A program made the position numbers and the translations under genes. Positions 3,926 to 62,041 of a DNA stretch of 64,000 nt are shown piece by piece. Numbering within the stretch: position 1 is the stretch's first letter; every line of letters begins with the position of its first letter. This DNA is from a virus: positions 8,990 through 72,989 of IMG/VR virus record IMGVR_UViG_3300032053_000047. One strand, written 5' to 3'. A model generated the notes under the pieces. That model searched no databases and was not told the DNA's origin. It was given only the letters and a program-made list of their open reading frames with translations.

Positions 3926-4552
3926 ATGAAAACACACGGTAGTATCCAAAACCCCGAACTACGCATGATCCTGAATGCCGAAGGGTTGAAGCAGGTGGCG
4001 TTCATGCCCCTAGCGCCGGATGATGACTGGTTTAAAGTCTCGACCGTGCCGACGGCACACGCAACTTCCAGCGTGACCACGTTACTCGCCGCAGCAATGA
4101 CGTTACCCTACTGCCCCGGCTGGCCGGTTGTTCCCGTGTTGACGTGCATCGAAGACACGCACGATACGTGGACGGTAGTTTCGGCACTCGTTACGGGCAT
4201 CAACCAGTTTGGCGATTGGTGCCAAGAAACAATTGCGGGTGTGAATAGTCCCGCGAAAACATGGACCGCAACGTGCTTAAACGCTTACCAGACCTTGATC
4301 AGCATCGTCATCACGATCACGGGCGATGTTGCTGCGGCTGACAGGTACAAACTCGGGTTCAATAAAACCTATGGCGTCGGCTACCACCTCGAAGCGGCCA
4401 CGGACCTGATCTGTTCACTGTTCAACTTCGCGGCGGACGCGGGCACGTTGTCTCTGGCATATCAGACATACATTATTGCGGGTACGCCAGCAGCAAGCGT
4501 CGCAACGAATGTGATCCTGCTCATGAGGCCGCAGCACTACTTCGGCAAATAG
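3926..4552 (+). CDS. Putative virion structural/decoration protein
   Basis: Thr/Ala-rich, beta-type composition; located in head module. Confidence 0.45.
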   Translation: MKTHGSIQNPELRMILNAEGLKQVAFMPLAPDDDWFKVSTVPTAHATSSVTTLLAAAMTLPYCPGWPVVPVLTCIEDTHDTWTVVSALVTGINQFGDWCQETIAGVNSPAKTWTATCLNAYQTLISIVITITGDVAAADRYKLGFNKTYGVGYHLEAATDLICSLFNFAADAGTLSLAYQTYIIAGTPAASVATNVILLMRPQHYFGK

Positions 4553-4573
4553 GCCGAGGAGAGGCGGTGCATC

Positions 4574-4966
4574 ATGGCACTAGCAGTTACCAGAGAAGAA
4601 TATTGCGAGGACTGGCTCGCCTGTTACACGCTCGAATGGGTATCGGCTGCTGATGGCACGTTAAGCGAAATCATTGCGGCCATCCAGGGCACGATAGAAC
4701 GTATTGTGTTCAAACCCTCAAGCGATGCCGGTGAAACCCCGTTCAGTCTCTATGACGTGACCCTACTTGATCGGGATGGTATCGACATACTATCCGGCAA
4801 AGGCGCAAACCTGAGCAACACGGCGGCATCCAGCGTGCTCGTTACAGACACCACGCCGGTACTGCCGATTGCGACTATAGGCCTGCTCACGTTGAACGTC
4901 GCCCATGCCGATAGCGGCGGTGCTGGTACACACTCGGGCACAATCCGCATTTACCTGAGACGATAA
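4574..4966 (+). CDS. Putative virion structural protein
   Basis: SD GGAG; beta-rich; located in head module. Confidence 0.45.
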   Translation: MALAVTREEYCEDWLACYTLEWVSAADGTLSEIIAAIQGTIERIVFKPSSDAGETPFSLYDVTLLDRDGIDILSGKGANLSNTAASSVLVTDTTPVLPIATIGLLTLNVAHADSGGAGTHSGTIRIYLRR

Positions 4967-5023
4967 AACCTCCGGGGCGGGGCGTTCGCATCCTGCCCCG
5001 GATAACTCTATTGAGGGCGTGTC

Positions 5024-5464
5024 ATGGCGAGCACATGGATTTCTGAAGTCGCTGCCGATACCTATTTCGCAACGCGGCTCGGCGCATCAACCTACTGGAG
5101 CAGCGGGGCAGAAAAAGAGGCCGCGCTAACTACGGCACAATGGCAGATCGAGAATTCCGATCTGTTTGGCGGTTATCCCGATGTATCCGTAACGGGCGAA
5201 GTTGCAACGCAGGCCATGGCGGATGCCGTGTGCGAGCAGGCGCTGTTCCTATTGCAAGACGCCGATGTCGATACCCGCGTGAACCTACAGGCGCAAGGAG
5301 TTCAGCAGGCAGGCATGGTGCAGGAGACGTACAAATTGGGCAACGGCAGGATCGCCATATCGGGCCGTGCTTATGCGTGTATGCAGAAAGCGGGCTACCT
5401 CAAATACGGTAAGGGGTTCCGGTATGACAGTCTGGCCAGCCAGAACGCCGATGATCTCGACTAA
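5024..5464 (+). CDS. Head-tail adaptor (DnaT-like/gp6-type)
   Basis: WISEVAADTYFATR...KEAALTTA...AVCEQALFLL pattern of phage head-tail connectors. Confidence 0.75.
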   Translation: MASTWISEVAADTYFATRLGASTYWSSGAEKEAALTTAQWQIENSDLFGGYPDVSVTGEVATQAMADAVCEQALFLLQDADVDTRVNLQAQGVQQAGMVQETYKLGNGRIAISGRAYACMQKAGYLKYGKGFRYDSLASQNADDLD

Positions 5465-6810
5465 TGAAGGCAACCCACGTAATGCTTTTACAGCGGCGTA
5501 ACGCGCAACGAAATCAAGTAGTTGATAATCAGGAAATATACAAGTCACAAATGTCGCCGCCGATCCCGCCCTGCCCCCTTTCCACACAACCGATTTGCGG
5601 ACAACCTCTATACACGGTCCTCGACGACGGGGCTTGGGCGGGACAACGTTGTTTTCTAATTGGCGGCGGACCCTCTTTGATCGGATTCGATTTCTCGCGT
5701 TTGGATGGCGAACTTGTTATCGGGATCAACCGGGCGTATGAAAAAATTGATCCGGCGATCATCTACACGATGGATACCCGTTTTATCGCATGGGCATCTA
5801 GCGGCACTATCAGTATTGAGGCACGCAAAAAACTCTATACGTCATTGGCTACCCGCGTTTTTTCTCGGGCATCTACAAAAAATTATCCTAAAGGTTTTTA
5901 CATTATCGAACGTTCAGGAAGCGACTTGTTTCAAGGCAGTTTACGCAAAGGGTGGTGTGGGCACAACAATTCCGGGTCCGGCGCATTATCTTTGGCGATA
6001 GCCCTCGGCTGTTCTGAAATTTACTTGCTTGGGTTTGACATGCACGGCGATCCGGTTACGGACAAACAAACCTGGTGGCATTCAGGGTATCCGGCGGACA
6101 GCATACAGAAAGCCAGCGTGGTCTACAAGGCAATGCGGAGCGCATTCGGACATCATGCGGATGCCATTAAAGAACGCGCGCGCGTTATTAACTGCAATCC
6201 CGATAGCGCACTTCGCTGTTTTGAGTTTGGAGATCTCCCTGAACCATGTCCGCCGCGCCCTACGGTTGTGGGTTTCTACACGGCTGGAACTGGGTATGAA
6301 GCCGAAGCGCGAGAGATGATCGCCAGCGCTCACCGTATGGGACTCAGGACTGATGTGCGGGCAATTGAGAATCAGGGTTGGCAACGGAACACCTCGTATA
6401 AGCCGCGGTTGTTGCAGGAAATGGTAGAGAAATATTGGGAATCCGCTATCGTCTATACCGACGCCGACTCCCGGTTTATGCGTTACCCGGCGTTATTCAA
6501 TGCCGATGGCGGTCTAGCCGATTTTGCCTATCACCGCCATAAGAGCAAAGAGGTTCTATCCGGCACGTTATTTATCCGCTGTAACGAATCCACCGCGGCA
6601 CTTATGCGGCTCTGGGCTAAAACGTGTGAGCAAAATCCGCAGACATGGGATCAACGAAACCTGGAAATCGCGCTGGGCAAATGGGACGGCAACTGTTCCA
6701 TATTGCCAGCCGAATATTGTTGCATCTTCGATTACAAACCCGCTCCCGATAAGCCCGTGGTAATTCACTATCAGGCGAGTCGGCGGCTGAAAAAGGAAGT
6801 AGGTGCCTAA
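5464..6810 (+). CDS. Two-domain glycosyltransferase (Maf/DUF115-like N-terminal domain + GT-A nucleotide-diphospho-sugar transferase)
   Basis: FLIGGGPSL, IGINRAY, NNSGSGALSLAIALGCSEIYLLGFDM; C-terminal YKP, YTDAD (DxD), WDQ, HYQASR. Confidence 0.8.
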   Translation: MKATHVMLLQRRNAQRNQVVDNQEIYKSQMSPPIPPCPLSTQPICGQPLYTVLDDGAWAGQRCFLIGGGPSLIGFDFSRLDGELVIGINRAYEKIDPAIIYTMDTRFIAWASSGTISIEARKKLYTSLATRVFSRASTKNYPKGFYIIERSGSDLFQGSLRKGWCGHNNSGSGALSLAIALGCSEIYLLGFDMHGDPVTDKQTWWHSGYPADSIQKASVVYKAMRSAFGHHADAIKERARVINCNPDSALRCFEFGDLPEPCPPRPTVVGFYTAGTGYEAEAREMIASAHRMGLRTDVRAIENQGWQRNTSYKPRLLQEMVEKYWESAIVYTDADSRFMRYPALFNADGGLADFAYHRHKSKEVLSGTLFIRCNESTAALMRLWAKTCEQNPQTWDQRNLEIALGKWDGNCSILPAEYCCIFDYKPAPDKPVVIHYQASRRLKKEVGA

Positions 6811-8837: not shown

Positions 8838-9793
8838 AGATCCTACTCCTAAATTTGGAATTCGATTGCGGCGGCGCATCTTGGAATCTGATGGAGGCGA
8901 TCCGGACGTGCCACCCTGGGCACGAAGTCAGGCACGCCATATTCAAGACCACCTACGCCGCTCCTAATAGTGACATTCTATTCAAGCGAGTAGAAGATCT
9001 GTTGCCGTTCTGCGAATGGGCCGATGTGATTCACTTCAATAACTGGCTTTGGACACACAAACCCGGCAACAATCGGCTCGGGTTCTATCCCGTTAATGAG
9101 TATGGCGGACCCTCGCCGTTTGAATCCGTATTGCAGGACAAAAGCAAAACTATCGTTTATCATTTCCACGGCGGCAATCACCAACTCAACCCGAAATATT
9201 GGCTTGACGAATGCACTCGCATTGGCGTTCGTATCCTGAAATGCGACCCGTTGTGTCCGATACCCGGTGCAACATGGTTGCCAAACGTACTCGACCTGAA
9301 ACCCGCGCAGGTCTGCCGACATCAGCCGTTCGGCGTGGCTATCATGGGCAATGTTAGCGATCAACGCCGAAACAATTATGCTATCCAATCCGTGTTGAAA
9401 TACCTCGATATCCCGCACAAGTTTTTTGGTGAAGTTCCCCGTCAAATTGCTCTCGTGGAACGCCGCAAATACCCGGTGTGTATTGATAATCTCACCCAGG
9501 GGTTCGCAGGCATGTGGACGTGGGAAGCCCTCGCCATGGGACAGGTGCCGATTGCGCGGCTGGACCCGGCGGTAACGGTGCAATATCAGGGTGCGCCTAT
9601 TGTCCAATGTCCCAACCTCGATTGGGTATCATTTCGACTTCGGCGATTTCAGGATGACCCGGTATTCTGGGATCAATGGTCGCGGGCCGGGGTTGCGTGG
9701 ACGGAGGAACACAATTCATCTGCCGCGGTAGCGGGCCGGTATATCGAGTTTTACCAAAAGGCAAAAGATGATCCAGACAATCTCAATCATTGA
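8834..9793 (+). CDS. GT-B (GT4-like) glycosyltransferase
   Basis: MKILLL start, ADVIHF, HFHG, WEALAMGQVPI; ATGA coupling. Confidence 0.75.
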   Translation: MKILLLNLEFDCGGASWNLMEAIRTCHPGHEVRHAIFKTTYAAPNSDILFKRVEDLLPFCEWADVIHFNNWLWTHKPGNNRLGFYPVNEYGGPSPFESVLQDKSKTIVYHFHGGNHQLNPKYWLDECTRIGVRILKCDPLCPIPGATWLPNVLDLKPAQVCRHQPFGVAIMGNVSDQRRNNYAIQSVLKYLDIPHKFFGEVPRQIALVERRKYPVCIDNLTQGFAGMWTWEALAMGQVPIARLDPAVTVQYQGAPIVQCPNLDWVSFRLRRFQDDPVFWDQWSRAGVAWTEEHNSSAAVAGRYIEFYQKAKDDPDNLNH

Positions 9794-10310
9794 CATCTGC
9801 AACCTAATACTTAAAAAGTGGGGTGCTGAATCCGCCCTTGAACTCGGTTGCGGTATCTGCGGGATGATTTCCCGCCTGCATCTAAACGAACGCCGCGTCG
9901 GTATTGATAACTGGCAACCGTCTCTAGATGAAGCACGCGAGAAATTCCCTTTTGTAAAAACCATTTGCGCAGACATCCGCAGGGTAGGCGAGTTGTTCGT
10001 CCCCAGTAGTATAGATATCGTCTGCGGGTTCGATATCTTGGAACACCTCCTATATGCAGATGCTATGCAGGTTATGGATGCTGCCGAACGCATAGCCCGG
10101 AAAGGAGTCATTTGGTGGGGACCGCTCGAAGAAGACGAACCGCGCGATATTGAAACCCATGGCAACCCCGGCATGAAACACATACGGATTATCAACCTGA
10201 ATGAATTTGAGACACGGGATTATGAATTGATCACGTTTCCCCATTATTGGACAGAACTACCCATGTATGGGGCTACCGGATTTTTGGCATTCAAAGGAAG
10301 TGCGCAATGA
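9768..10310 (+). CDS. Class I SAM methyltransferase
   Basis: LELGCGICG, VGID, DIVCGFDILEHL. Confidence 0.9.
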   Translation: MIQTISIIDICNLILKKWGAESALELGCGICGMISRLHLNERRVGIDNWQPSLDEAREKFPFVKTICADIRRVGELFVPSSIDIVCGFDILEHLLYADAMQVMDAAERIARKGVIWWGPLEEDEPRDIETHGNPGMKHIRIINLNEFETRDYELITFPHYWTELPMYGATGFLAFKGSAQ

Positions 10311-11281
10311 CCCAATCAGGTCCGGCCTTAGTAACACAATATTTATCAGCCAGCACGTATCCGGCAAAACTGATTGCCGATCCGGGTACGATTGCGATGA
10401 TCAAACGCGGGTTTATCCCGCCCATTCACGTACAACTATCACCAACAAACCGTTGTACACGCGCCTGTAGTTTTTGCAACTGCCGGGGCCGCGACAAAGA
10501 CGCCGAACTATCATTAGCCCAGATCATGCAATGCCTCCGGGACTTTTTCTCGTTAGGTGCGCGGGCATTGACCATTACGGGCGGCGGCGAACCGCTTTGT
10601 TATCCCGATCTCGATGCCGTGATCGAGTTTGCTGCTAACCTCGGGTATGACGTGGGGCTGATCACAAACGGCGATTTACTGAGTGTGAAACCGTCAGATG
10701 CCGCGCTTCACCGCCTAACATGGTGCCGGATCAGTGCAAGCGATGAAACGAATCAGATAGCCGCACTGGAAGAGCGTGTTGCCGCCCATTTTTCCGTTGA
10801 CTGGGCGCTCAGTTATGTTGTCACGGCAAAATTCGATTCAAGTAACCTAATGGAACATATCGCATGGGCTGAACGCGCCAATATGACGCATATCCGCATC
10901 CTAGAAGATCACACCAATCTCGGCAAGACGCTGGGCATTGAACAGGTTGAAGCGCTTGTCGGGGTTGACAATCCGCGCATCATCTACCAGCACCGAAAAG
11001 AGTTCTTCCGCGGTCCCGCTAATTGCCGGATCGGATTGCTCAAGCCCTATGTCGGCTCTGAAGGAAACATATACCCCTGTTGCGGAATCCAATTCGCCCT
11101 CGGTGATAAACGATATGCTCTACCGAAAGAATTGTCTCTATGCGCTATTGAAGACATTAAAGAGTTCTGGCATAAGCCGACGCTATTCAACGGTTCCCAA
11201 TGCGTCCAGTGCTACTATCAAATGTACAATGACGTACTGCGGATTCTCACTTCCAATATTGCGCATGGGGGGTTTCTATAA
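10307..11281 (+). CDS. Radical SAM protein with SPASM/twitch-like C terminus
   Basis: CTRACSFC (CxxxCxxC), TGGGEP, ITNG, GNIYPCC, C-terminal CxxC. Confidence 0.92.
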   Translation: MTQSGPALVTQYLSASTYPAKLIADPGTIAMIKRGFIPPIHVQLSPTNRCTRACSFCNCRGRDKDAELSLAQIMQCLRDFFSLGARALTITGGGEPLCYPDLDAVIEFAANLGYDVGLITNGDLLSVKPSDAALHRLTWCRISASDETNQIAALEERVAAHFSVDWALSYVVTAKFDSSNLMEHIAWAERANMTHIRILEDHTNLGKTLGIEQVEALVGVDNPRIIYQHRKEFFRGPANCRIGLLKPYVGSEGNIYPCCGIQFALGDKRYALPKELSLCAIEDIKEFWHKPTLFNGSQCVQCYYQMYNDVLRILTSNIAHGGFL

Positions 11282-38170: not shown

Positions 38171-38581
38171 TCATTTTTTGCCTGTCTTAAACGGCATCTC
38201 GGCGCGATCCATCGCGGTCGCATAGCAGGTTACAAACGTGCCAAGCTTTTCGATCTTTCGGTCGAGGCTGAACTCGCGGTCGGGCAAATTAAGAGCAGCG
38301 GCAAGCGCATTCGCGTCAAGCCTGGCAACCCTAAGCGGGTCCGAAGTTGAATCGCTAATTTCAGCGGGCGGCATTATCTTCATAATAAATCCATGTTCAC
38401 GCAACCAAGGCTCTAGGCTGGAACGCTTCTCTGGGCCAAGAACGCCACGGCTCACAAAATCATACAGCGGCTGCGGAGTTTTCAATCCAATTGCTTTGGC
38501 GATATCTGTTACGTGAATTCGCTTAGACGCGGCGGAAAGCGCCGCTCGTAGCCGTTCTTTTTCCGGTTCCATGTTGAACAT
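38171..38581 (-). CDS. CI-like repressor (HTH)
   Basis: VTDIAKAIGLKTPQPLYDF; divergent from the Cro-like gene. Confidence 0.65.
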   Translation of the reverse strand: MFNMEPEKERLRAALSAASKRIHVTDIAKAIGLKTPQPLYDFVSRGVLGPEKRSSLEPWLREHGFIMKIMPPAEISDSTSDPLRVARLDANALAAALNLPDREFSLDRKIEKLGTFVTCYATAMDRAEMPFKTGKK

Positions 38582-38649
38582 TGTAAACGCTGTAAGTCCT
38601 TATCACAAGCCTCTCTAGAGCAATCTAGACACCCCAGTCAAAATTCCTC

Positions 38650-38678
38650 TTGACAAATCTAGGTAAATCGTCTAAGAT
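38650..38678 (+). promoter_or_regulatory. Rightward early promoter with repeated (AA)TCTAG operator-like half-sites
   Basis: TTGACA-N17-TAAGAT; TCTAG repeated four times within 38613-38695. Confidence 0.75.
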
Positions 38679-38704
38679 TCTAAACGGAATCTAGGAGGTA
38701 CACG

Positions 38705-39016
38705 ATGAACAAAGACAATAATGACCGCCCGCCGAGGGCTGAACGGCTTCGTGAATTACGCGGTGAACGAACCCTCCGCGAAGTAGCTAAACAGTTGGGG
38801 CTTTCACCTGCAACCATATCACTTAATGAAAATGGATACCCAATTTCCGCCGAGGTAGCCAACCTCTACAGCCAATTCTATGGCGTCGAAGTATCCGAAT
38901 TTTGGACGCCACCGGAACTTCCAATGGCCGACGCGGCCCAATCCGCGTCCTCTTGCGCTGACAATAGTTTACCACTGGCCGACGAAAATTTCAACCTGGA
39001 AGATGTCCATGCCTAA
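38705..39016 (+). CDS. Cro-like XRE HTH regulator
   Basis: LRELRGERTLREVAKQLGLSPATISLNENG. Confidence 0.9.
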   Translation: MNKDNNDRPPRAERLRELRGERTLREVAKQLGLSPATISLNENGYPISAEVANLYSQFYGVEVSEFWTPPELPMADAAQSASSCADNSLPLADENFNLEDVHA

Positions 39017-39299
39017 AGTCGCAACTGCCGATCTCGCGATGCGCGAGTACTGGACCCCCGCCCAGGCGGCGCGGGTGCTCGGCCACGGGGCGGCATTCTG
39101 GCGGGCCGCGTTTGACCGCGGCGACGTCCAGGGGCAACTCGCGGGGGATCGCCGGTATCTAGTCGCCGGTTCAGCCCGCGTCTACCTGACTGGCCTATGC
39201 CGGGCCACTGCGCCCACAAAACCGCTGCAAACCCGCGGAGAAGCGGCTGTAGCGCGGTTCATGGCCCAACATGGGGCGCGGCCAGTTAGTACGAATTGA
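39009..39299 (+). CDS. Excisionase-like HTH protein
   Basis: YWTPAQAARVLG...DRGDV...RRYLV. Confidence 0.7.
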   Translation: MPKVATADLAMREYWTPAQAARVLGHGAAFWRAAFDRGDVQGQLAGDRRYLVAGSARVYLTGLCRATAPTKPLQTRGEAAVARFMAQHGARPVSTN

Positions 39300-39341
39300 C
39301 GAAAACGGAGGGGATCTGAAATTTGAATCGGCAACGCCGAC

Positions 39342-39415
39342 GGCAGGCTTGGCGCGGCTAGGCACGGCGAGGAATGGCCTGGCTAGGACCGGCTGGGCAC
39401 GGCATGGGATGGTTT
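39342..39415 (+). repeat. GGN-NN pentamer array 1 (candidate guide RNA)
   Basis: GGCA followed by 14 in-phase pentamers, all starting GG (10 of 14 GGC). Confidence 0.9.
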
Positions 39416-39434
39416 ACAAAATGGAGGAAACAAC

Positions 39435-40106
39435 GTGAAGAAGACAGAGGAAGCGGAAGCGGCACCAAAACAAAAGACGGTTTTAATTGAAAAGCCAAAC
39501 ATGGAAATCGGGCTTTTCCGTATCCGTGGAACGGCTCCTTATGTGCAACACCGTTTCGCCACGAAAGCCAAGGAAATGATGAAGGCGAAACAGGAAGCCG
39601 GATCAACGGCAGCAAAAGGCGCAAAGCGAGAAGCTAAAAACTTCATGGCAGAGTATGAGGCGGCGATGTACAAGATCGGCGCAAACGGGAAACCGGTGGA
39701 ACATGGCATTCCCGCGCCTGCATTCCGTAACGCCATGATCTCGGCTTGCCGGGTTGTCGGCTTCCCTATGACGCGCGGCAAGTTGGCCGTGTTTGTGGAG
39801 GCCGATGCGTTCGATGAAAGCGACGGCACGCCCTTGGTGCGCATCATCAAAGGCAAACCCCACTGTACTGAAATGCCAGTGCGCCTCGAAACAGGCGTGA
39901 TCGATATTAGGGTACGCCCGATGTGGGACGCGGGGTGGGAAGCCGAAGTGCGTATCCGATTCGATGCCGACATGTTCACGTTGGAAGACATCGGAAATCT
40001 GTTGTTCCGGGCGGGCGTGCAGGTAGGTATCGGTGAAGGACGGCCCGACAGCAAAAAGTCCTGCGGGATGGGCTGGGGGTTATTCGAGGTTGTCAAAAGC
40101 AAGTAG
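39435..40106 (+). CDS. Stand-alone RAMP/Cas7-like protein
   Basis: FRIRGTAPY strand, GIPAPAFRNAMISA helix, C-terminal G-rich loop GIGEGRP...GMGWGLFEV; SD GGAGG. Confidence 0.75.
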   Translation: MKKTEEAEAAPKQKTVLIEKPNMEIGLFRIRGTAPYVQHRFATKAKEMMKAKQEAGSTAAKGAKREAKNFMAEYEAAMYKIGANGKPVEHGIPAPAFRNAMISACRVVGFPMTRGKLAVFVEADAFDESDGTPLVRIIKGKPHCTEMPVRLETGVIDIRVRPMWDAGWEAEVRIRFDADMFTLEDIGNLLFRAGVQVGIGEGRPDSKKSCGMGWGLFEVVKSK

Positions 40107-40134
40107 CCGCCGCTGTGTGTGATAGTTGAATCAA

Positions 40135-40280
40135 GGCAGGCACGGCGGGGCCGGGCATGGCGGGGCTCAACGGGGTTCGGCTTGGCGCGACTTGGCGAGA
40201 TAGGCTTGGCAGGCGCGGTTCGGCGGGGCGGGGCGGGGCGGGGCGGGGTATGGCACGGTTCGGCAAGGCATGGCAGGCAT
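40135..40280 (+). repeat. GGY-NN pentamer array 2 (two candidate guide units)
   Basis: ~26 pentamers punctuated by 4-nt GGCA units at 40135, 40208 and 40272. Confidence 0.9.
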
Positions 40281-40321
40281 GAAACGGTTGAGTGAGCGAA
40301 ACGACGAAAGGACAGAACGGA

Positions 40322-40774
40322 ATGGACAGTTCAGTGTTGGATGAACTTGAGATGATCCGCGTCAAAAGCGGCGGCGTGCTCAAGCCAGAAGATGTAGTCC
40401 AGCGGGCGAAGGGCAAAAGCAACCCGCTACACAAGTATTTCACATGGGATGATACGGCGGCGGCGCGTGAATACCGCCTGTGGCAGGCCCGTGAGTTAAT
40501 CCGCGTTCATGTGCGTATCGAATCACCGGGGCAAACATTTCCAACCCGCGTGTACGTCAGTCTCGATGCCGACCGGCAAGATGCGGGCGGCGGGTATCGC
40601 CACATCGACGACGTGTTAACCAATACAGACTTGCGCAGCCAACTACTTGACGAGGCCGACCGCGACTTCCGGTATTGGGAAGCCAAGTATTCACACTTGA
40701 AAGAACTCGCTGGCGTTATCGAATCAATGGATATGGTGCGGACAAGACGTAGCAAGAAATCCAAGGCGGCGTAA
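40322..40774 (+). CDS. Conserved phage protein, putative partner of the RAMP-like gene
   Basis: LKPEDVV...PLHKYFTWDDTAAAREYRLWQARELIR. Confidence 0.7.
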   Translation: MDSSVLDELEMIRVKSGGVLKPEDVVQRAKGKSNPLHKYFTWDDTAAAREYRLWQARELIRVHVRIESPGQTFPTRVYVSLDADRQDAGGGYRHIDDVLTNTDLRSQLLDEADRDFRYWEAKYSHLKELAGVIESMDMVRTRRSKKSKAA

Positions 40775-40784
40775 CGGAGGCCAC

Positions 40785-41060
40785 ATGACGGCACGTAAGT
40801 GGAAACAGAAACGGGCATTACAGCGGTTCGCGGAGGCGGTCCAGGCGCTACCCGGATTAGCCTTATGGGGAAAATGCAAAACGCTTGAAGACGTTCTGTA
40901 TCGCGTTGCCCATCCCGCTTGGCTGCCAATTGTAGATGCATGTACGGAAAGAACTGGTTTTGCGCCAATGGATGCGGCCAACATCGAATCCCGCAAGGAT
41001 ATTCGCTGGCTCTACCGGAGGTTACTTACCGCCTGCGGTGTTGATGCACGGCACGTATAG
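40785..41060 (+). CDS. Hypothetical protein
   Basis: SD GGAGG. Confidence 0.6.
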   Translation: MTARKWKQKRALQRFAEAVQALPGLALWGKCKTLEDVLYRVAHPAWLPIVDACTERTGFAPMDAANIESRKDIRWLYRRLLTACGVDARHV

Positions 41061-41240
41061 GAGAGGGGCATGAAAACGGCGATAGTCGCGTGTAAATGCG
41101 CACACGCATGGCAGGACGCCCGTTACGGCGCACACAACCGCGTGCATAACTACTCCCCGAACAAAACTTCGCCGAAATGGGTTTGCACAGTATGTCGCGC
41201 TGAAAAACCAGCGCCTAATATTTAAGAAAGGAGAGGAACT

Positions 41241-41474
41241 ATGAGACTAGAACTCTACGGCAGTGGACCACCGCAAGAGCAGGTGACACGGATTCGGGTG
41301 CGGCAAAATACTGACGCCATCATTATTGACGCAGTTGATGCCAATGGCAACCAAGTAGAGCATGGACTTTTGTTCGAGTTGACACCTAAAGGCCTTGAAT
41401 GTTTTTGCAAGGTTAATAAGACATTGGGATTTCCCCTTGAAGGTGCTGGTTATATCAAGGTCATTAACAAATAG
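41241..41474 (+). CDS. Hypothetical protein
   Basis: SD AGGAG. Confidence 0.6.
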   Translation: MRLELYGSGPPQEQVTRIRVRQNTDAIIIDAVDANGNQVEHGLLFELTPKGLECFCKVNKTLGFPLEGAGYIKVINK

Positions 41475-41531
41475 CCTCCTTCCGCCGCGAGCCGGGGCGC
41501 GGAGTAGTACCCCGGCATAGAATTGAACTGT

Positions 41532-41604
41532 AGTCGTGTAGCGCAATAGGTAGAGCGCGGCGCTGTTAACGCCGAGGTTGTAGGTTCGAGTCCTACCGCG
41601 ACTG
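41532..41604 (+). tRNA. tRNA-Asn(GTT)
   Basis: Full cloverleaf; anticodon arm CGGCG-CTGTTAA-CGCCG; T-arm GTAGG-TTCGAGT-CCTAC; no encoded CCA. Confidence 0.93.
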
Positions 41605-41629
41605 TTAAAAGTTGAAGAACCGATCCCCG

Positions 41630-42850: not shown

Positions 42851-42869
42851 TTACCAAAGTTGAATTCGT

Positions 42870-42958
42870 GGGCGAGTGGCGAAATTGGCAAACGCAGCGG
42901 ACTTAAAATCCGCTACCCCGGCCAGGGGTTTTTGTAGGTTCGAGTCCTGCCTCGCCCA
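42870..42958 (+). tRNA. tRNA-Leu(TAA)
   Basis: GGGCGAG/CTCGCCC acceptor; GCGGA-CTTAAAA-TCCGC anticodon arm; long variable arm; T-arm. Confidence 0.93.
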
Positions 42959-43373
42959 TCTTATGAATTATTAAACTATTAGGTTTTGGCTAATAGTTGC
43001 CCCGGAGAGTACGGGTATACAGTTGAATATTTTTAGGTGTGCTGTGGCCGAAGGAATGCGTGACGGGCGCGAGAAATCGCGTTGGTAGTGCGACGACGGC
43101 CCCAACGGTCGGCTCAATGATGGAGTAAGGAACAAACCCCTAGAGCAGCAAGCAGGTCAGCCGGGCGCGGGTGATTTTACCCGTAATGACAGTACAGGCC
43201 GAGATAATCGCCTGATAGCCATAGTATACCGATTTCCCAGCAGCGACCTTGCGGGGCCGTGCGGTGACATGGCGTAGCTCTCCCATAGAGAACGTCATGG
43301 CATCGTTACATCAACCCGTTCCGGTTCTATCACGGCTGAGGCCGGACGCCGCTCGGATAACAGTTGACGGGTA

Positions 43374-49707: not shown

Positions 49708-50388
49708 ATGCAGATTAAAAGCCGATGGAATGGCGAAGTACTGTATGAATGTGAGGCCGATAGTCTAATCGAGGTTGTCATTAAGGCCGTAGAAGCGGAG
49801 GCCAACCTCGCGGGGGCCAACCTCGCGAGGGCCGACCTCACGAGGGCCGACCTCACGAGGGCCGACCTCGCGGGGGCCAACCTCACGAGGGCCGACCTCA
49901 CGAGGGCCAACCTCACGGAGGCCGACCTCGCGGGGGCCAACCTCGCGGAGGCCAACCTCACGAGGGCCGACCTCGCGAGGGCCAACCTCGCGGGGGCCGA
50001 CCTCACGAGGGCCTACCTCGCGAGGGCCGACCTCACGAGGGCCAACCTCGCGGGGGCCGACCTCACGGGGGCCGAGTTACCACATTTCCAAATCTGTCCT
50101 GAAGTCGGTAGTTTTATCGGCTTCAAAAAGCTAGACAACGGCATAATTGCCACACTATTGATCCCAGACGGTGCGCGGCGTATGACGCCGCTCGGTTATC
50201 GGAAATGCCGGGCTGAACGTGTGCGTGTATTAAGCGGCAATGGCAAAAGTCCAACCGCCAATACCAAACTGGAATACCGCGAGGGCGACATGGTTGAGGC
50301 GGACTCGTTTGATGATGATATCCGGGTCGAATACAGCCACGGGATCGCGTTTTTTGTGACGCGGAAGGAAGCTGAGGAGTGGATATGA
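49708..50388 (+). CDS. Pentapeptide-repeat protein with a DUF5758-like C terminus
   Basis: ~18 A(D/N)Lxx repeats (15-bp DNA repeats at 49801-50075); RKCRAE, SHGIAFF. Confidence 0.9.
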
Positions 50389-52559: not shown

Positions 52560-53243
52560 ATGGATATTTTTAGAATCAAGAGTATTAGTGACTTTGAGCA
52601 ATTCAAAACTGAAATCGGCTACCACGTGAAAGGACATCTGAAAATCGAATGTCCTATCTCACTCTGTGGATCGTTAATCGTTGATGGGTCCATCCATGCG
52701 GGCGAGTCCATCAAGGCGGGCGGGTTCATCGAGGCGGGCAGGTCCATCCATGCGGGCGAGTTCATCAAGGCGGGCAGGTTCATCAAGGCGGGCGGGTTCA
52801 TCGAGGCGGGCAGGTCCATCCATGCGGGCGAGTCCATCAAGGCGGGCGGGTTCATCGAGGCGGGCAGGTTCATCAAGGCGGGCGGGTTCATCGAGGCGGG
52901 CGGGTTCATCGAGGCGGGCGGGTCGATCCAGGCGCATGAGTCCATCCATGCGGGCGAGTACATCCATGCGGGCGGGTTTGTGTTTTCCTTCACCTTCTCT
53001 TTGTCCTGTAAGTGGCTTGAAACGCGCCTACTGCCGTTTTGGCGCGAATTCTATGCAACTATGCCACCGTTGCAAAAGTGGCGAGACAAGATTCTCAGCA
53101 AATCTTCTTGTTGGGGTGATCTACAAACATTAGTCACGCCTGATGAGGCTATGACTATCTGTGCATGGGATGGCTGGCATCCAATCATTAAGGCGCAACT
53201 GGAAATGTTTTTCGGTCTCAAAAAGCGCGTTGACTTTACCTAA
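52560..53243 (+). CDS. Hexapeptide-repeat (G.SI.A/G.FI.A) beta-helix-like protein
   Basis: ~16 tandem 18-bp repeats at 52686-52975. Confidence 0.8.
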   Translation: MDIFRIKSISDFEQFKTEIGYHVKGHLKIECPISLCGSLIVDGSIHAGESIKAGGFIEAGRSIHAGEFIKAGRFIKAGGFIEAGRSIHAGESIKAGGFIEAGRFIKAGGFIEAGGFIEAGGSIQAHESIHAGEYIHAGGFVFSFTFSLSCKWLETRLLPFWREFYATMPPLQKWRDKILSKSSCWGDLQTLVTPDEAMTICAWDGWHPIIKAQLEMFFGLKKRVDFT

Positions 53244-61255: not shown

Positions 61256-62041
61256 ATGATTTGCTTACAGTGTGGTTATGAGACGCAGGTGATCATGAAG
61301 GTGAGTGGCCTATGTCCAGATTGCGCCATAAGTGCCCTCCGCGCCGACAATGCACGGCTGACTGATGCGCTACAAAAGGCAAGTCACCTCTATACACAGC
61401 TTGAAGTCAAAGAATTTCATCTGACTGAGGAACTGGCGCAGGCGCAGCGGGAACGCGATGCGCTATCAGCCCAGCGAACGGCTGATGCACAATCGATCCA
61501 GGAGCTCCAGATTCAGGCATCACGTGACGTTGCGCGCCACAATATGGAGTTGTGTAATCAGCGTGACGTCGCCCGCGCCGAACTTGCCGCGGTCCAGCAG
61601 CGGCTTGACCACGTGCTCGCTGAGGTGCCGGGACTATGTGAACATGCCTACCGAGACGGGCAAACTCATGGCGAGAACCAGATCGACAGATGGACAGAAA
61701 GCCCCGCCTATGCCGACCTCCAAGCCCTACTCACCCTGTCCGCAGAGCCGAAGGAGGCTACGCGACAGCCCACGGAGGTGTTCCCGCCGAGCCATTACAT
61801 CCGCCAAGAGATGGACAAGCGCGGGTGGGGTAAGTTATGGATACTATCTCGGGAAACTGGACTGTCGCGCCTCACGCTAGAACTAATTTTGGAGAATCAT
61901 CCCGCTGTCCCGATCACCCCCGAGATCGCCGCCGCCCTTGGCCGCGCGTTCGGCACCTGCGCGGAAAGGTGGCTGAATTTTGACCGCCGGTGGCAGAAAC
62001 GGAAACAGGCGCCCGCGCAGGCGGAAGGAGAGGCGCCGTGA
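61256..62041 (+). CDS. Coiled-coil protein with a C-terminal HigA-like HTH
   Basis: EVFPPSHYIRQEMDKRGW...ITPEIAAALGRAFGTCAERWLNF. Confidence 0.7.
   Translation: MICLQCGYETQVIMKVSGLCPDCAISALRADNARLTDALQKASHLYTQLEVKEFHLTEELAQAQRERDALSAQRTADAQSIQELQIQASRDVARHNMELCNQRDVARAELAAVQQRLDHVLAEVPGLCEHAYRDGQTHGENQIDRWTESPAYADLQALLTLSAEPKEATRQPTEVFPPSHYIRQEMDKRGWGKLWILSRETGLSRLTLELILENHPAVPITPEIAAALGRAFGTCAERWLNFDRRWQKRKQAPAQAEGEAP

Follow-up and report, generated by a model that had tools for sequence, protein, structure and literature searches.

Can a single RAMP-type gene of a phage, lying between arrays of five-nucleotide units, form the core of an RNA-guided system? We analyzed this question for a locus in a 64,000-nucleotide (nt) stretch of viral DNA (positions 8,990 to 72,989 of IMG/VR record IMGVR_UViG_3300032053_000047; hereafter the window), whose contig came from a sediment metagenome. 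An earlier note, made from the sequence without database searches, had described a 223-aa open reading frame (ORF) with pentamer arrays on both sides and had pointed to a recently reported viral system of this architecture, VIPR. That system exists in print and, as far as the accessible parts of the preprint go, matches the locus (10.64898/2026.04.26.720920). We conclude that the locus is, with high probability, a VIPR system in the early operon of a temperate phage, and we file it as such because every defining feature that could be tested was found in it. This assignment rests on a modelled Cas7-type fold, a sequence link to the Vipr protein of phage SUSP1, arrays confined to one strand, gene co-occurrence, hypervariable NN pairs and an accessory gene. 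The principle of VIPR is already in print in the 2026 preprints; the window locus is a further example of it and not a new principle.

VIPR, or Viral Interference Programmable Repeat, has been defined as a phage-borne single-RRM RAMP protein (Vipr), usually with one accessory gene (vap) and with no CRISPR array (10.64898/2026.04.26.720920; all statements on VIPR in this text follow the accessible parts of the preprints). Its guide, the vrRNA, is built from 9-16 YNNGG units with a constant GGY and a hypervariable NN, and silencing of double-stranded DNA follows a code in which each unit leaves one base of the target unread (10.64898/2026.04.26.720920). The same source describes seven types (I-VII) as well as staggered arrays of overlapping vrRNAs with 1-nt overlaps. 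Two later preprints also treat VIPR (10.64898/2026.10.15.759431, 10.64898/2026.10.21.760802).

Guide-like tracts around vipr

We searched the window on both strands for GG repeated with a period of precisely 5 nt and found three perfect runs, all on the + strand, with 14 units at 39346-39412, 6 units at 40139-40165 and 13 units at 40212-40273. Elsewhere in the 64 kb the longest run on either strand had 4 units (7 such runs), and 14-unit runs are expected by chance at about 1e-11, given a GG frequency of 0.0755 in the window. Pentamer arrays therefore do lie on both sides of the 223-aa ORF, with 14 units on one side and 6 + 13 on the other. The third fixed base of the unit was mostly C, with T, A or G in a few units, and the earlier description of GGC/GGT as nearly constant was right apart from the few units with A or G. 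When we read the tracts unit by unit, three guide-like modules emerged, U1 (39344-39413), D1 (40137-40210) and D2 (40210-40274). The downstream array, taken in the earlier note for a single tract, was thus present as claimed but consisted of two modules. The parts of the locus, all on the + strand, are:

39342..39413, + strand: vrRNA tract U1, read as a GGCAGGC junction (39342-39348) and 13 further NN-GG-N units
39435..40106, + strand: vipr, encoding the 223-aa single-RRM RAMP protein (fold model, family profile, phrog_4652)
40135..40210, + strand: vrRNA tract D1, read as a GGCAGGC junction, 6 perfect units and then degenerate units
40208..40278, + strand: vrRNA tract D2, read as a GGCAGGC junction, 13 perfect units and a terminal GGCAGGC (40272-40278)
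40322..40774, + strand: vap-like accessory gene of 150 aa (homologues beside vipr; phrog_15946)

The vipr ORF begins with GTG, and a GGAGG lies 8 nt upstream of this start. Each module opens with the GGCAGGC junction (at 39342, 40135 and 40208), and a further copy ends the array at 40272. U1 has 14 perfect GG units, lacks a terminal CAGGC and ends 21 nt 5' of the vipr start codon. D1 contains three degenerate units (AA, GA and GA instead of GG) and one extra 4-nt step, while in D2 the variable pair is itself GG in 5 of the 13 perfect units and TRF reported a 5-copy repeat with 100% matches. A search of 38600-41300 against Rfam gave no match at E up to 1, so neither a hammerhead ribozyme nor another catalogued RNA family was recognized there. 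The fold z-scores of the three tracts were -2.0, -1.8 and +0.9, not clearly better than shuffles, U1 at -2.0 included. Three mechanical ORFs run over the tracts (39271-39438, 40119-40295 and 40157-40282); we rejected the coding reading because of the 5-nt period with its 4-nt steps.

The state of the modules bears on whether the locus could be a decaying relic, in which vipr is intact and the guides no longer work. The three degenerate units and the frame slip of D1, the perfect 5-copy simple repeat of D2 and the absence of a terminal CAGGC from U1 would all agree with decay. U1, on the other hand, retains 14 perfect units, and neither vipr nor vap is disrupted, both retaining the residues conserved in their families. 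We consider a relic very unlikely.

The Vipr protein and the accessory gene

The 223-aa protein had no match in Pfam and fell into PHROG phrog_4652 (function unknown; E 6.5e-14). An AlphaFold2 model made from an 89-sequence alignment reached a pLDDT of 93.0 and a pTM of 0.86; a single-sequence run reached a pLDDT of only 37.9. The top VIA-align matches of the model were Cmr4, Csm3 and gRAMP structures (Z 11.7-10, 141-158 residues aligned), among them 6s6b_I (Z 11.7, root-mean-square deviation 3.2, 152 residues aligned), 9g9a_D (Z 11.5) and Csm3 chain 6ae2_B (Z 10.8), and CRISPR RAMP proteins made up 49 of the 50 VIA-align matches listed. The matches to the Cas7 group spanned residues 19-223 of the model at Z 11.7-9. 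Foldseek placed Csm3 chain 8do6_E first (E 2.9e-5) and returned 43 matches at E <= 0.001. As modelled, the protein is a Cas7-type RAMP fold with a single RRM core, a glycine-rich loop and a thumb. The RAMP fold anticipated from the sequence was thus recovered by structure prediction, and the three RAMP motifs that had been picked out took their expected places, as a strand at 23-32, a helix at 94-108 and the glycine-rich loop at 198-215. Residues G194, G202, R203, G211 and G215 were invariant in the 89 sequences, the last four within this loop.

We searched the PDB sequences with the family profile, and the SUSP1 Vipr protein (36pp_D) was the sole significant match (E 1.5e-5, 27.8 bits), covering the stretch from thumb to G-loop; the next match had an E of 0.22. 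In the cryo-electron microscopy structure from SUSP1, one protomer covers each unit and GGY is held by H17, R138, D177, W178 and R179 (10.64898/2026.04.26.720927). We mapped these contact residues onto the window protein through two HMMER alignments, one pairwise and one with the family profile. H17 corresponded to H39, within a short aligned stretch that was not significant. The thumb residue R138 corresponded to R161, which is at least 90% conserved in the 89 sequences, and D177 to E201, a conservative change that is invariant in the 20 closest relatives, while R179 corresponded to R203, one of the invariant residues. On these alignments, three of the residues that contact GGY in SUSP1 Vipr, namely an Arg of the thumb and an acid and an Arg of the G-loop, appear to be kept. 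By analogy with that structure, one subunit would bind each GGY and display the NN pair, which is the arrangement the earlier note had supposed.

The protein also resembles the Cas7 group of class 1 CRISPR systems (Csm3, Cmr4, Csf2 and gRAMP domains) in its RRM core, glycine-rich loop and thumb, at Z 9-11.7. Unlike class 1 CRISPR systems, however, the locus has a period of 5 nt and not 6, three fixed bases per unit and phage early genes as neighbours, and it comes with no repeat-spacer array and, in the 66 of 101 ORFs scanned, no other cas gene. We found no CRISPR-like repeat-spacer array on the contig, where 23-mers present at least three times came only from two short tandem repeats, at 58.8 kb and 61.7 kb of the contig. 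Similarly, no cas-like family appeared among the ORFs scanned against PHROGs, a scan that took in 66 of the 101 ORFs of at least 70 aa and left out the other 35. The earlier statement that the window holds no CRISPR array and no other cas genes stood within this range.

Downstream of the tracts, a 150-aa gene follows as had been noted, running from an ATG at 40322 to 40774; a GTG at 40292 would give 160 aa, and the protein atlas contains an identical 150-aa form. Its product belongs to PHROG phrog_15946 (function unknown; E 5.7e-27) and is 37% identical to g33 of cyanophage Cy-LDV1. It had no informative match in Pfam, in the PDB (searched with the single sequence and with a 52-sequence profile) or in the protein atlas. 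We collected 142 loci around vipr homologues, 125 of them with distinct vipr DNA, and a vap homologue was present in 116 of these 125; in 108 it came immediately after vipr in the same orientation.

Arrays at homologous loci

The Vipr family proved large: of 7,610 candidate proteins 7,027 matched at E <= 0.001, there were 2,209 clusters at 50% identity, and a search with an alignment of the 20 closest sequences confirmed 488 stretches with vipr homologues in IMG/VR. We scanned the 604 kb of the collected loci for the same 5-nt period. A perfect run of at least 5 units lay within 600 nt of vipr and on its strand in 106 of the 125 loci (34 upstream, 96 downstream, 24 both). Among the 19 loci without a near run, 5 have runs farther off, and in 3 the downstream flank is shorter than 600 nt. 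The unit at these loci was NN-GG-C in 82% of cases, with T in 8% and A in 7.5%.

To compare the variability of guide and gene, we used the alignable array positions of 11 close pairs, whose vipr genes are 86-99% identical in nucleotides. The two N positions mismatched in 37% and 45% of cases, the Y position in 12% and the gene in 6.6%, and the two G positions in 3% and 5%. The value for G is biased a little downward, since the presence of GG in one of the two paired loci served to define the units. The NN positions thus differ 6-7 times more often than the vipr gene itself. Homologues flanked by GGYNN arrays with variable NN, which the earlier note had proposed to look for, were thus found. 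In addition, near-identical loci carry different numbers of modules.

The strand on which the runs lie speaks against another explanation, that the tracts act as DNA, whether as protein-binding repeats, G-quadruplex-prone DNA or recombination hot spots, with the RAMP protein a mere neighbour. GG at every fifth nucleotide could indeed form G-rich structures, and array length changes fast between relatives. Yet the strand of vipr has 582 runs (4,877 units) and the other strand 10 (58 units), a constant GGY with a free NN is the pattern of a guide and not of a binding site, and the SUSP1 tracts are reported to be transcribed and to co-purify with Vipr (10.64898/2026.04.26.720920). A role as DNA elements is, in our judgement, extremely improbable.

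The published VIPR architecture that the window most resembles is the staggered one, which likewise combines a Vipr RAMP gene, an accessory gene and GGY/NN pentamer tracts on one strand (10.64898/2026.04.26.720920). Adjacent guides of staggered arrays meet at a 1-nt overlap, here at a 4-nt GGC-A-GGC step, and as in staggered VIPR there is no ribozyme between the guides of the window, judging from the lack of an Rfam match. The relatives show the same junction: CAGGC was the first unit in 326 of the 582 runs, the spacing of successive junctions peaked at 5n+4 nt between 39 and 74 nt, and in 62 of 193 array clusters of the homologous loci a terminal CAGGC followed the last unit, ahead of the ribosome site of the next gene. 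On sequence grounds, the window and its relatives fit the staggered array of overlapping vrRNAs, because their guides are joined by 4-nt GGC-A-GGC steps and show no structured tail.

Type II VIPR (Escherichia phage SUSP1 and a Pseudomonas fulva prophage; PDB 36pp) shares with the window a single RAMP protein of about 200 aa, guides of 9-16 units, one guide upstream of the gene with more downstream, and the early region of a phage as its setting. It differs from the window in that each of its vrRNAs has a structured 3' tail that does not vary and that forms a pseudoknot in the SUSP1 clade, whereas the window guides abut directly at GGCAGGC. The 4-nt GGC-A-GGC step of the window shifts the pentamer frame by one, unlike in the tested type II systems. 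Further, the accessory gene of the window belongs to a different family, without a detectable DNA-binding domain, and the array of the window lies between vipr and vap.

Several relatives merit description in their own right. Two phage-like contigs of one metagenome-assembled genome (MAG) have vipr genes that are 98% identical and different guide sets, one with a single 8-unit run between vipr and vap and the other with 5 runs totalling 46 units. We also found a vipr homologue in 25 mycobacteriophage and 5 Gordonia phage records. In mycobacteriophage Donkeykong (NC_051648.1) the coding sequence gp48 (2498-2884), annotated as a hypothetical protein, is occupied almost entirely by seven GGY/NN runs (2517-2859, 64 units). 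The next gene downstream, gp49, is the vipr homologue, and gp50 corresponds to vap. The annotation of gp48 is thus probably an error in which a guide array was taken for a gene. Cyanophage Cy-LDV1 (BK059895.1) has a complete VIPR locus at 3977-5562, with a vipr 55% identical to that of the window and an array on either side of the vap homologue g33, the first of them lying between vipr and g33; these parts are annotated as hypothetical or left unannotated.

Targets, phage setting and the ends of the guides

A number of results weigh against the assignment to VIPR, or against the published details carrying over to this locus. Similarity to SUSP1 Vipr was detectable only with the profile, at the E of 1.5e-5 given above, as against a non-significant 0.42 in the pairwise comparison. 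The G-loop Trp of SUSP1 (W178, which stacks on G2) is replaced by G202, an invariant Gly in the clade, although the fixed letters are still GGY. We detected no conserved or stable structured 3' tail in the window tracts or in the homologous arrays, and the staggered architecture lies outside those that have been confirmed by small-RNA sequencing according to the preprint (10.64898/2026.04.26.720920). D1 and/or D2 may be weak or dead guides, since D1 is partly degenerate and D2 partly of low complexity. Among the sequencing runs that contain the stretch there was no RNA run; the only one with the whole stretch was a DNA run, possibly that of the source sample. Finally, the target searches were blank. 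We looked for targets in IMG/VR and in a metagenome collection, both covered in part, with exact seeds under the 1-nt-skip (NN-x) rule followed by extension, and the seeds of U1, D1 and D2 gave only chance-level extensions. The first 8 and last 8 pairs of U1 found 46 and 10 stretches in IMG/VR, the best with 21 of 26 bases (5 of 10 outside the seed). The middle 9 pairs of U1 found 20 stretches in the metagenome contigs, of which 16 were one identical sequence with 23 of 26 bases (5 of 8 outside the seed). D2 seeds found 88 stretches (best 21 of 24) and D1 seeds 12 (best 19 of 24). We also took 279 distinct guides from the 125 loci and the contig of the window and scanned them against these sequences, the loci with their 2.5-kb flanks, with skips of 0, 1, 2 and 3 nt, and under each skip rule cross-targeting equalled that of shuffled guides. 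Similarly, the two sibling contigs of the MAG, taken whole, showed no excess over shuffles when tested against each other's 18 guides. These blanks do not argue against the skip code, because the searches were shallow (exact seeds, partial collections and 2.5-kb flanks).

The lack of a competitor among the targets raises the question of whether a VIPR-type ribonucleoprotein might serve another purpose, its guides regulating genes of the phage itself or of the host, or binding RNA. It is consistent with such a role that no competitor target turned up in exact-seed searches of partial collections and that the locus lies within the immunity and early region, and the SUSP1 complex is also able to pair with single-stranded RNA (10.64898/2026.04.26.720927). 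However, a blank from a search with exact seeds and partial collections says little either way. No site on the contig of the window scored above shuffled guides, and the accessible part of the preprint reports that self-targeting at an NN match of at least 80% is absent from the clades analyzed there (10.64898/2026.04.26.720920), both of which speak against such a role. So does the finding that full filaments and silencing in SUSP1 require a DNA triplex (10.64898/2026.04.26.720927). We regard a role other than one against competitors as unlikely.

The element that hosts the VIPR locus is a temperate, siphovirus-like phage of roughly 73 kb. PHROGs matches on the contig included portal, head, tape-measure and tail genes, an integrase, a recombination exonuclease, an HNH gene and replication genes. 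The two contig ends (1-254 and 72736-72989) match at 253 of 254 nt; this 254-nt terminal repeat indicates that the genome is probably complete, circular or terminally redundant, at about 72.7 kb. The locus adjoins a pair of helix-turn-helix (HTH) genes, the immunity region, and occupies the same position in Cy-LDV1 and in Donkeykong. The features ahead of U1 are:

38171-38581, - strand: 136-aa ORF divergent from the cro-like gene, with no family match
38650..38678, + strand: candidate early promoter (TTGACA-17-TAAGAT) 5' of the cro-like gene, from a consensus scan only
38705..39016, + strand: cro-like HTH gene, first gene of the operon (Pfam HTH_3, E 6.4e-8, exceeding the curated cut-off)
39009..39299, + strand: 96-aa ORF, the 'xis' of the earlier note, with no Pfam or PHROG match

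Of the two neighbours that had been named, cro was thus supported by its HTH_3 match, while the ORF called xis was without a family match. The promoter consensus scan found 3 sites as against 1.7 expected from shuffles, and a scan of the operon region found no terminator-like site on the + strand ahead of 41197-41214. Transcription of the VIPR genes from an early promoter is plausible, because a promoter-like site precedes the cro-like gene and no terminator-like site occurs before 41197.

Some other features of the phage were noted in passing. Just downstream of the VIPR operon lie tRNA-Asn(GTT) (41531-41605) and tRNA-Leu(TAA) (42869-42960), in a region with few convincing ORFs. At about 52708-52896 of the window (contig 61697-61885) a sequence of at least 23 nt occurs 4-5 times at spacings of 72, 54, 36 and 18 nt; these repeats lie in or beside the ORF 52560-53240, downstream of a replication-initiator-like gene, and resemble origin iterons. 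Another short tandem repeat is found at about 49825-50020 of the window. The head-gene module includes a sialyltransferase-like gene and a weak radical-SAM-like gene (5464-6807 and 10307-11278).

Taking the locus as a VIPR system, we draw its mode of action from the published ones, and transcription, filament assembly, the 1-nt-skip code, silencing and the kind of target would all follow the literature. By analogy with SUSP1, the three GGY/NN tracts would be transcribed together with the operon. Vipr protomers would then polymerise along each tract, one per 5-nt unit, with the GGY bases buried and the NN pairs displayed. The latter would base-pair with double-stranded DNA in the pattern NN-x-NN-x, one base being skipped per unit, and the bound complex would shut off transcription of its target, for which a competing phage or a satellite is the likeliest candidate.

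For such an array, joined by junctions and with no tails seen, one possibility, which we offer tentatively and rate as less than probable, is that the ends of the guides are set by the conserved 4-nt GGC-A-GGC step and not by a structured tail or a ribozyme. Because each protomer takes up 5 nt, a step of 4 nt puts the filament out of register and could thereby stop it or mark a cleavage site. In that case several separate filaments could form on a single transcript without processing, and multiplexed guides would be made more simply than in the VIPR and CRISPR systems tested so far.

As a class of programmable DNA binders VIPR has been reported only recently, and it is said to be older than CRISPR. 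The window locus documents a complete example from a temperate phage of sediment, and the clade to which it belongs is shown to be very large, extending to cultured mycobacteriophages, Gordonia phages and a cyanophage. The cultured phages of this clade offer a direct route to testing the staggered guide architecture.

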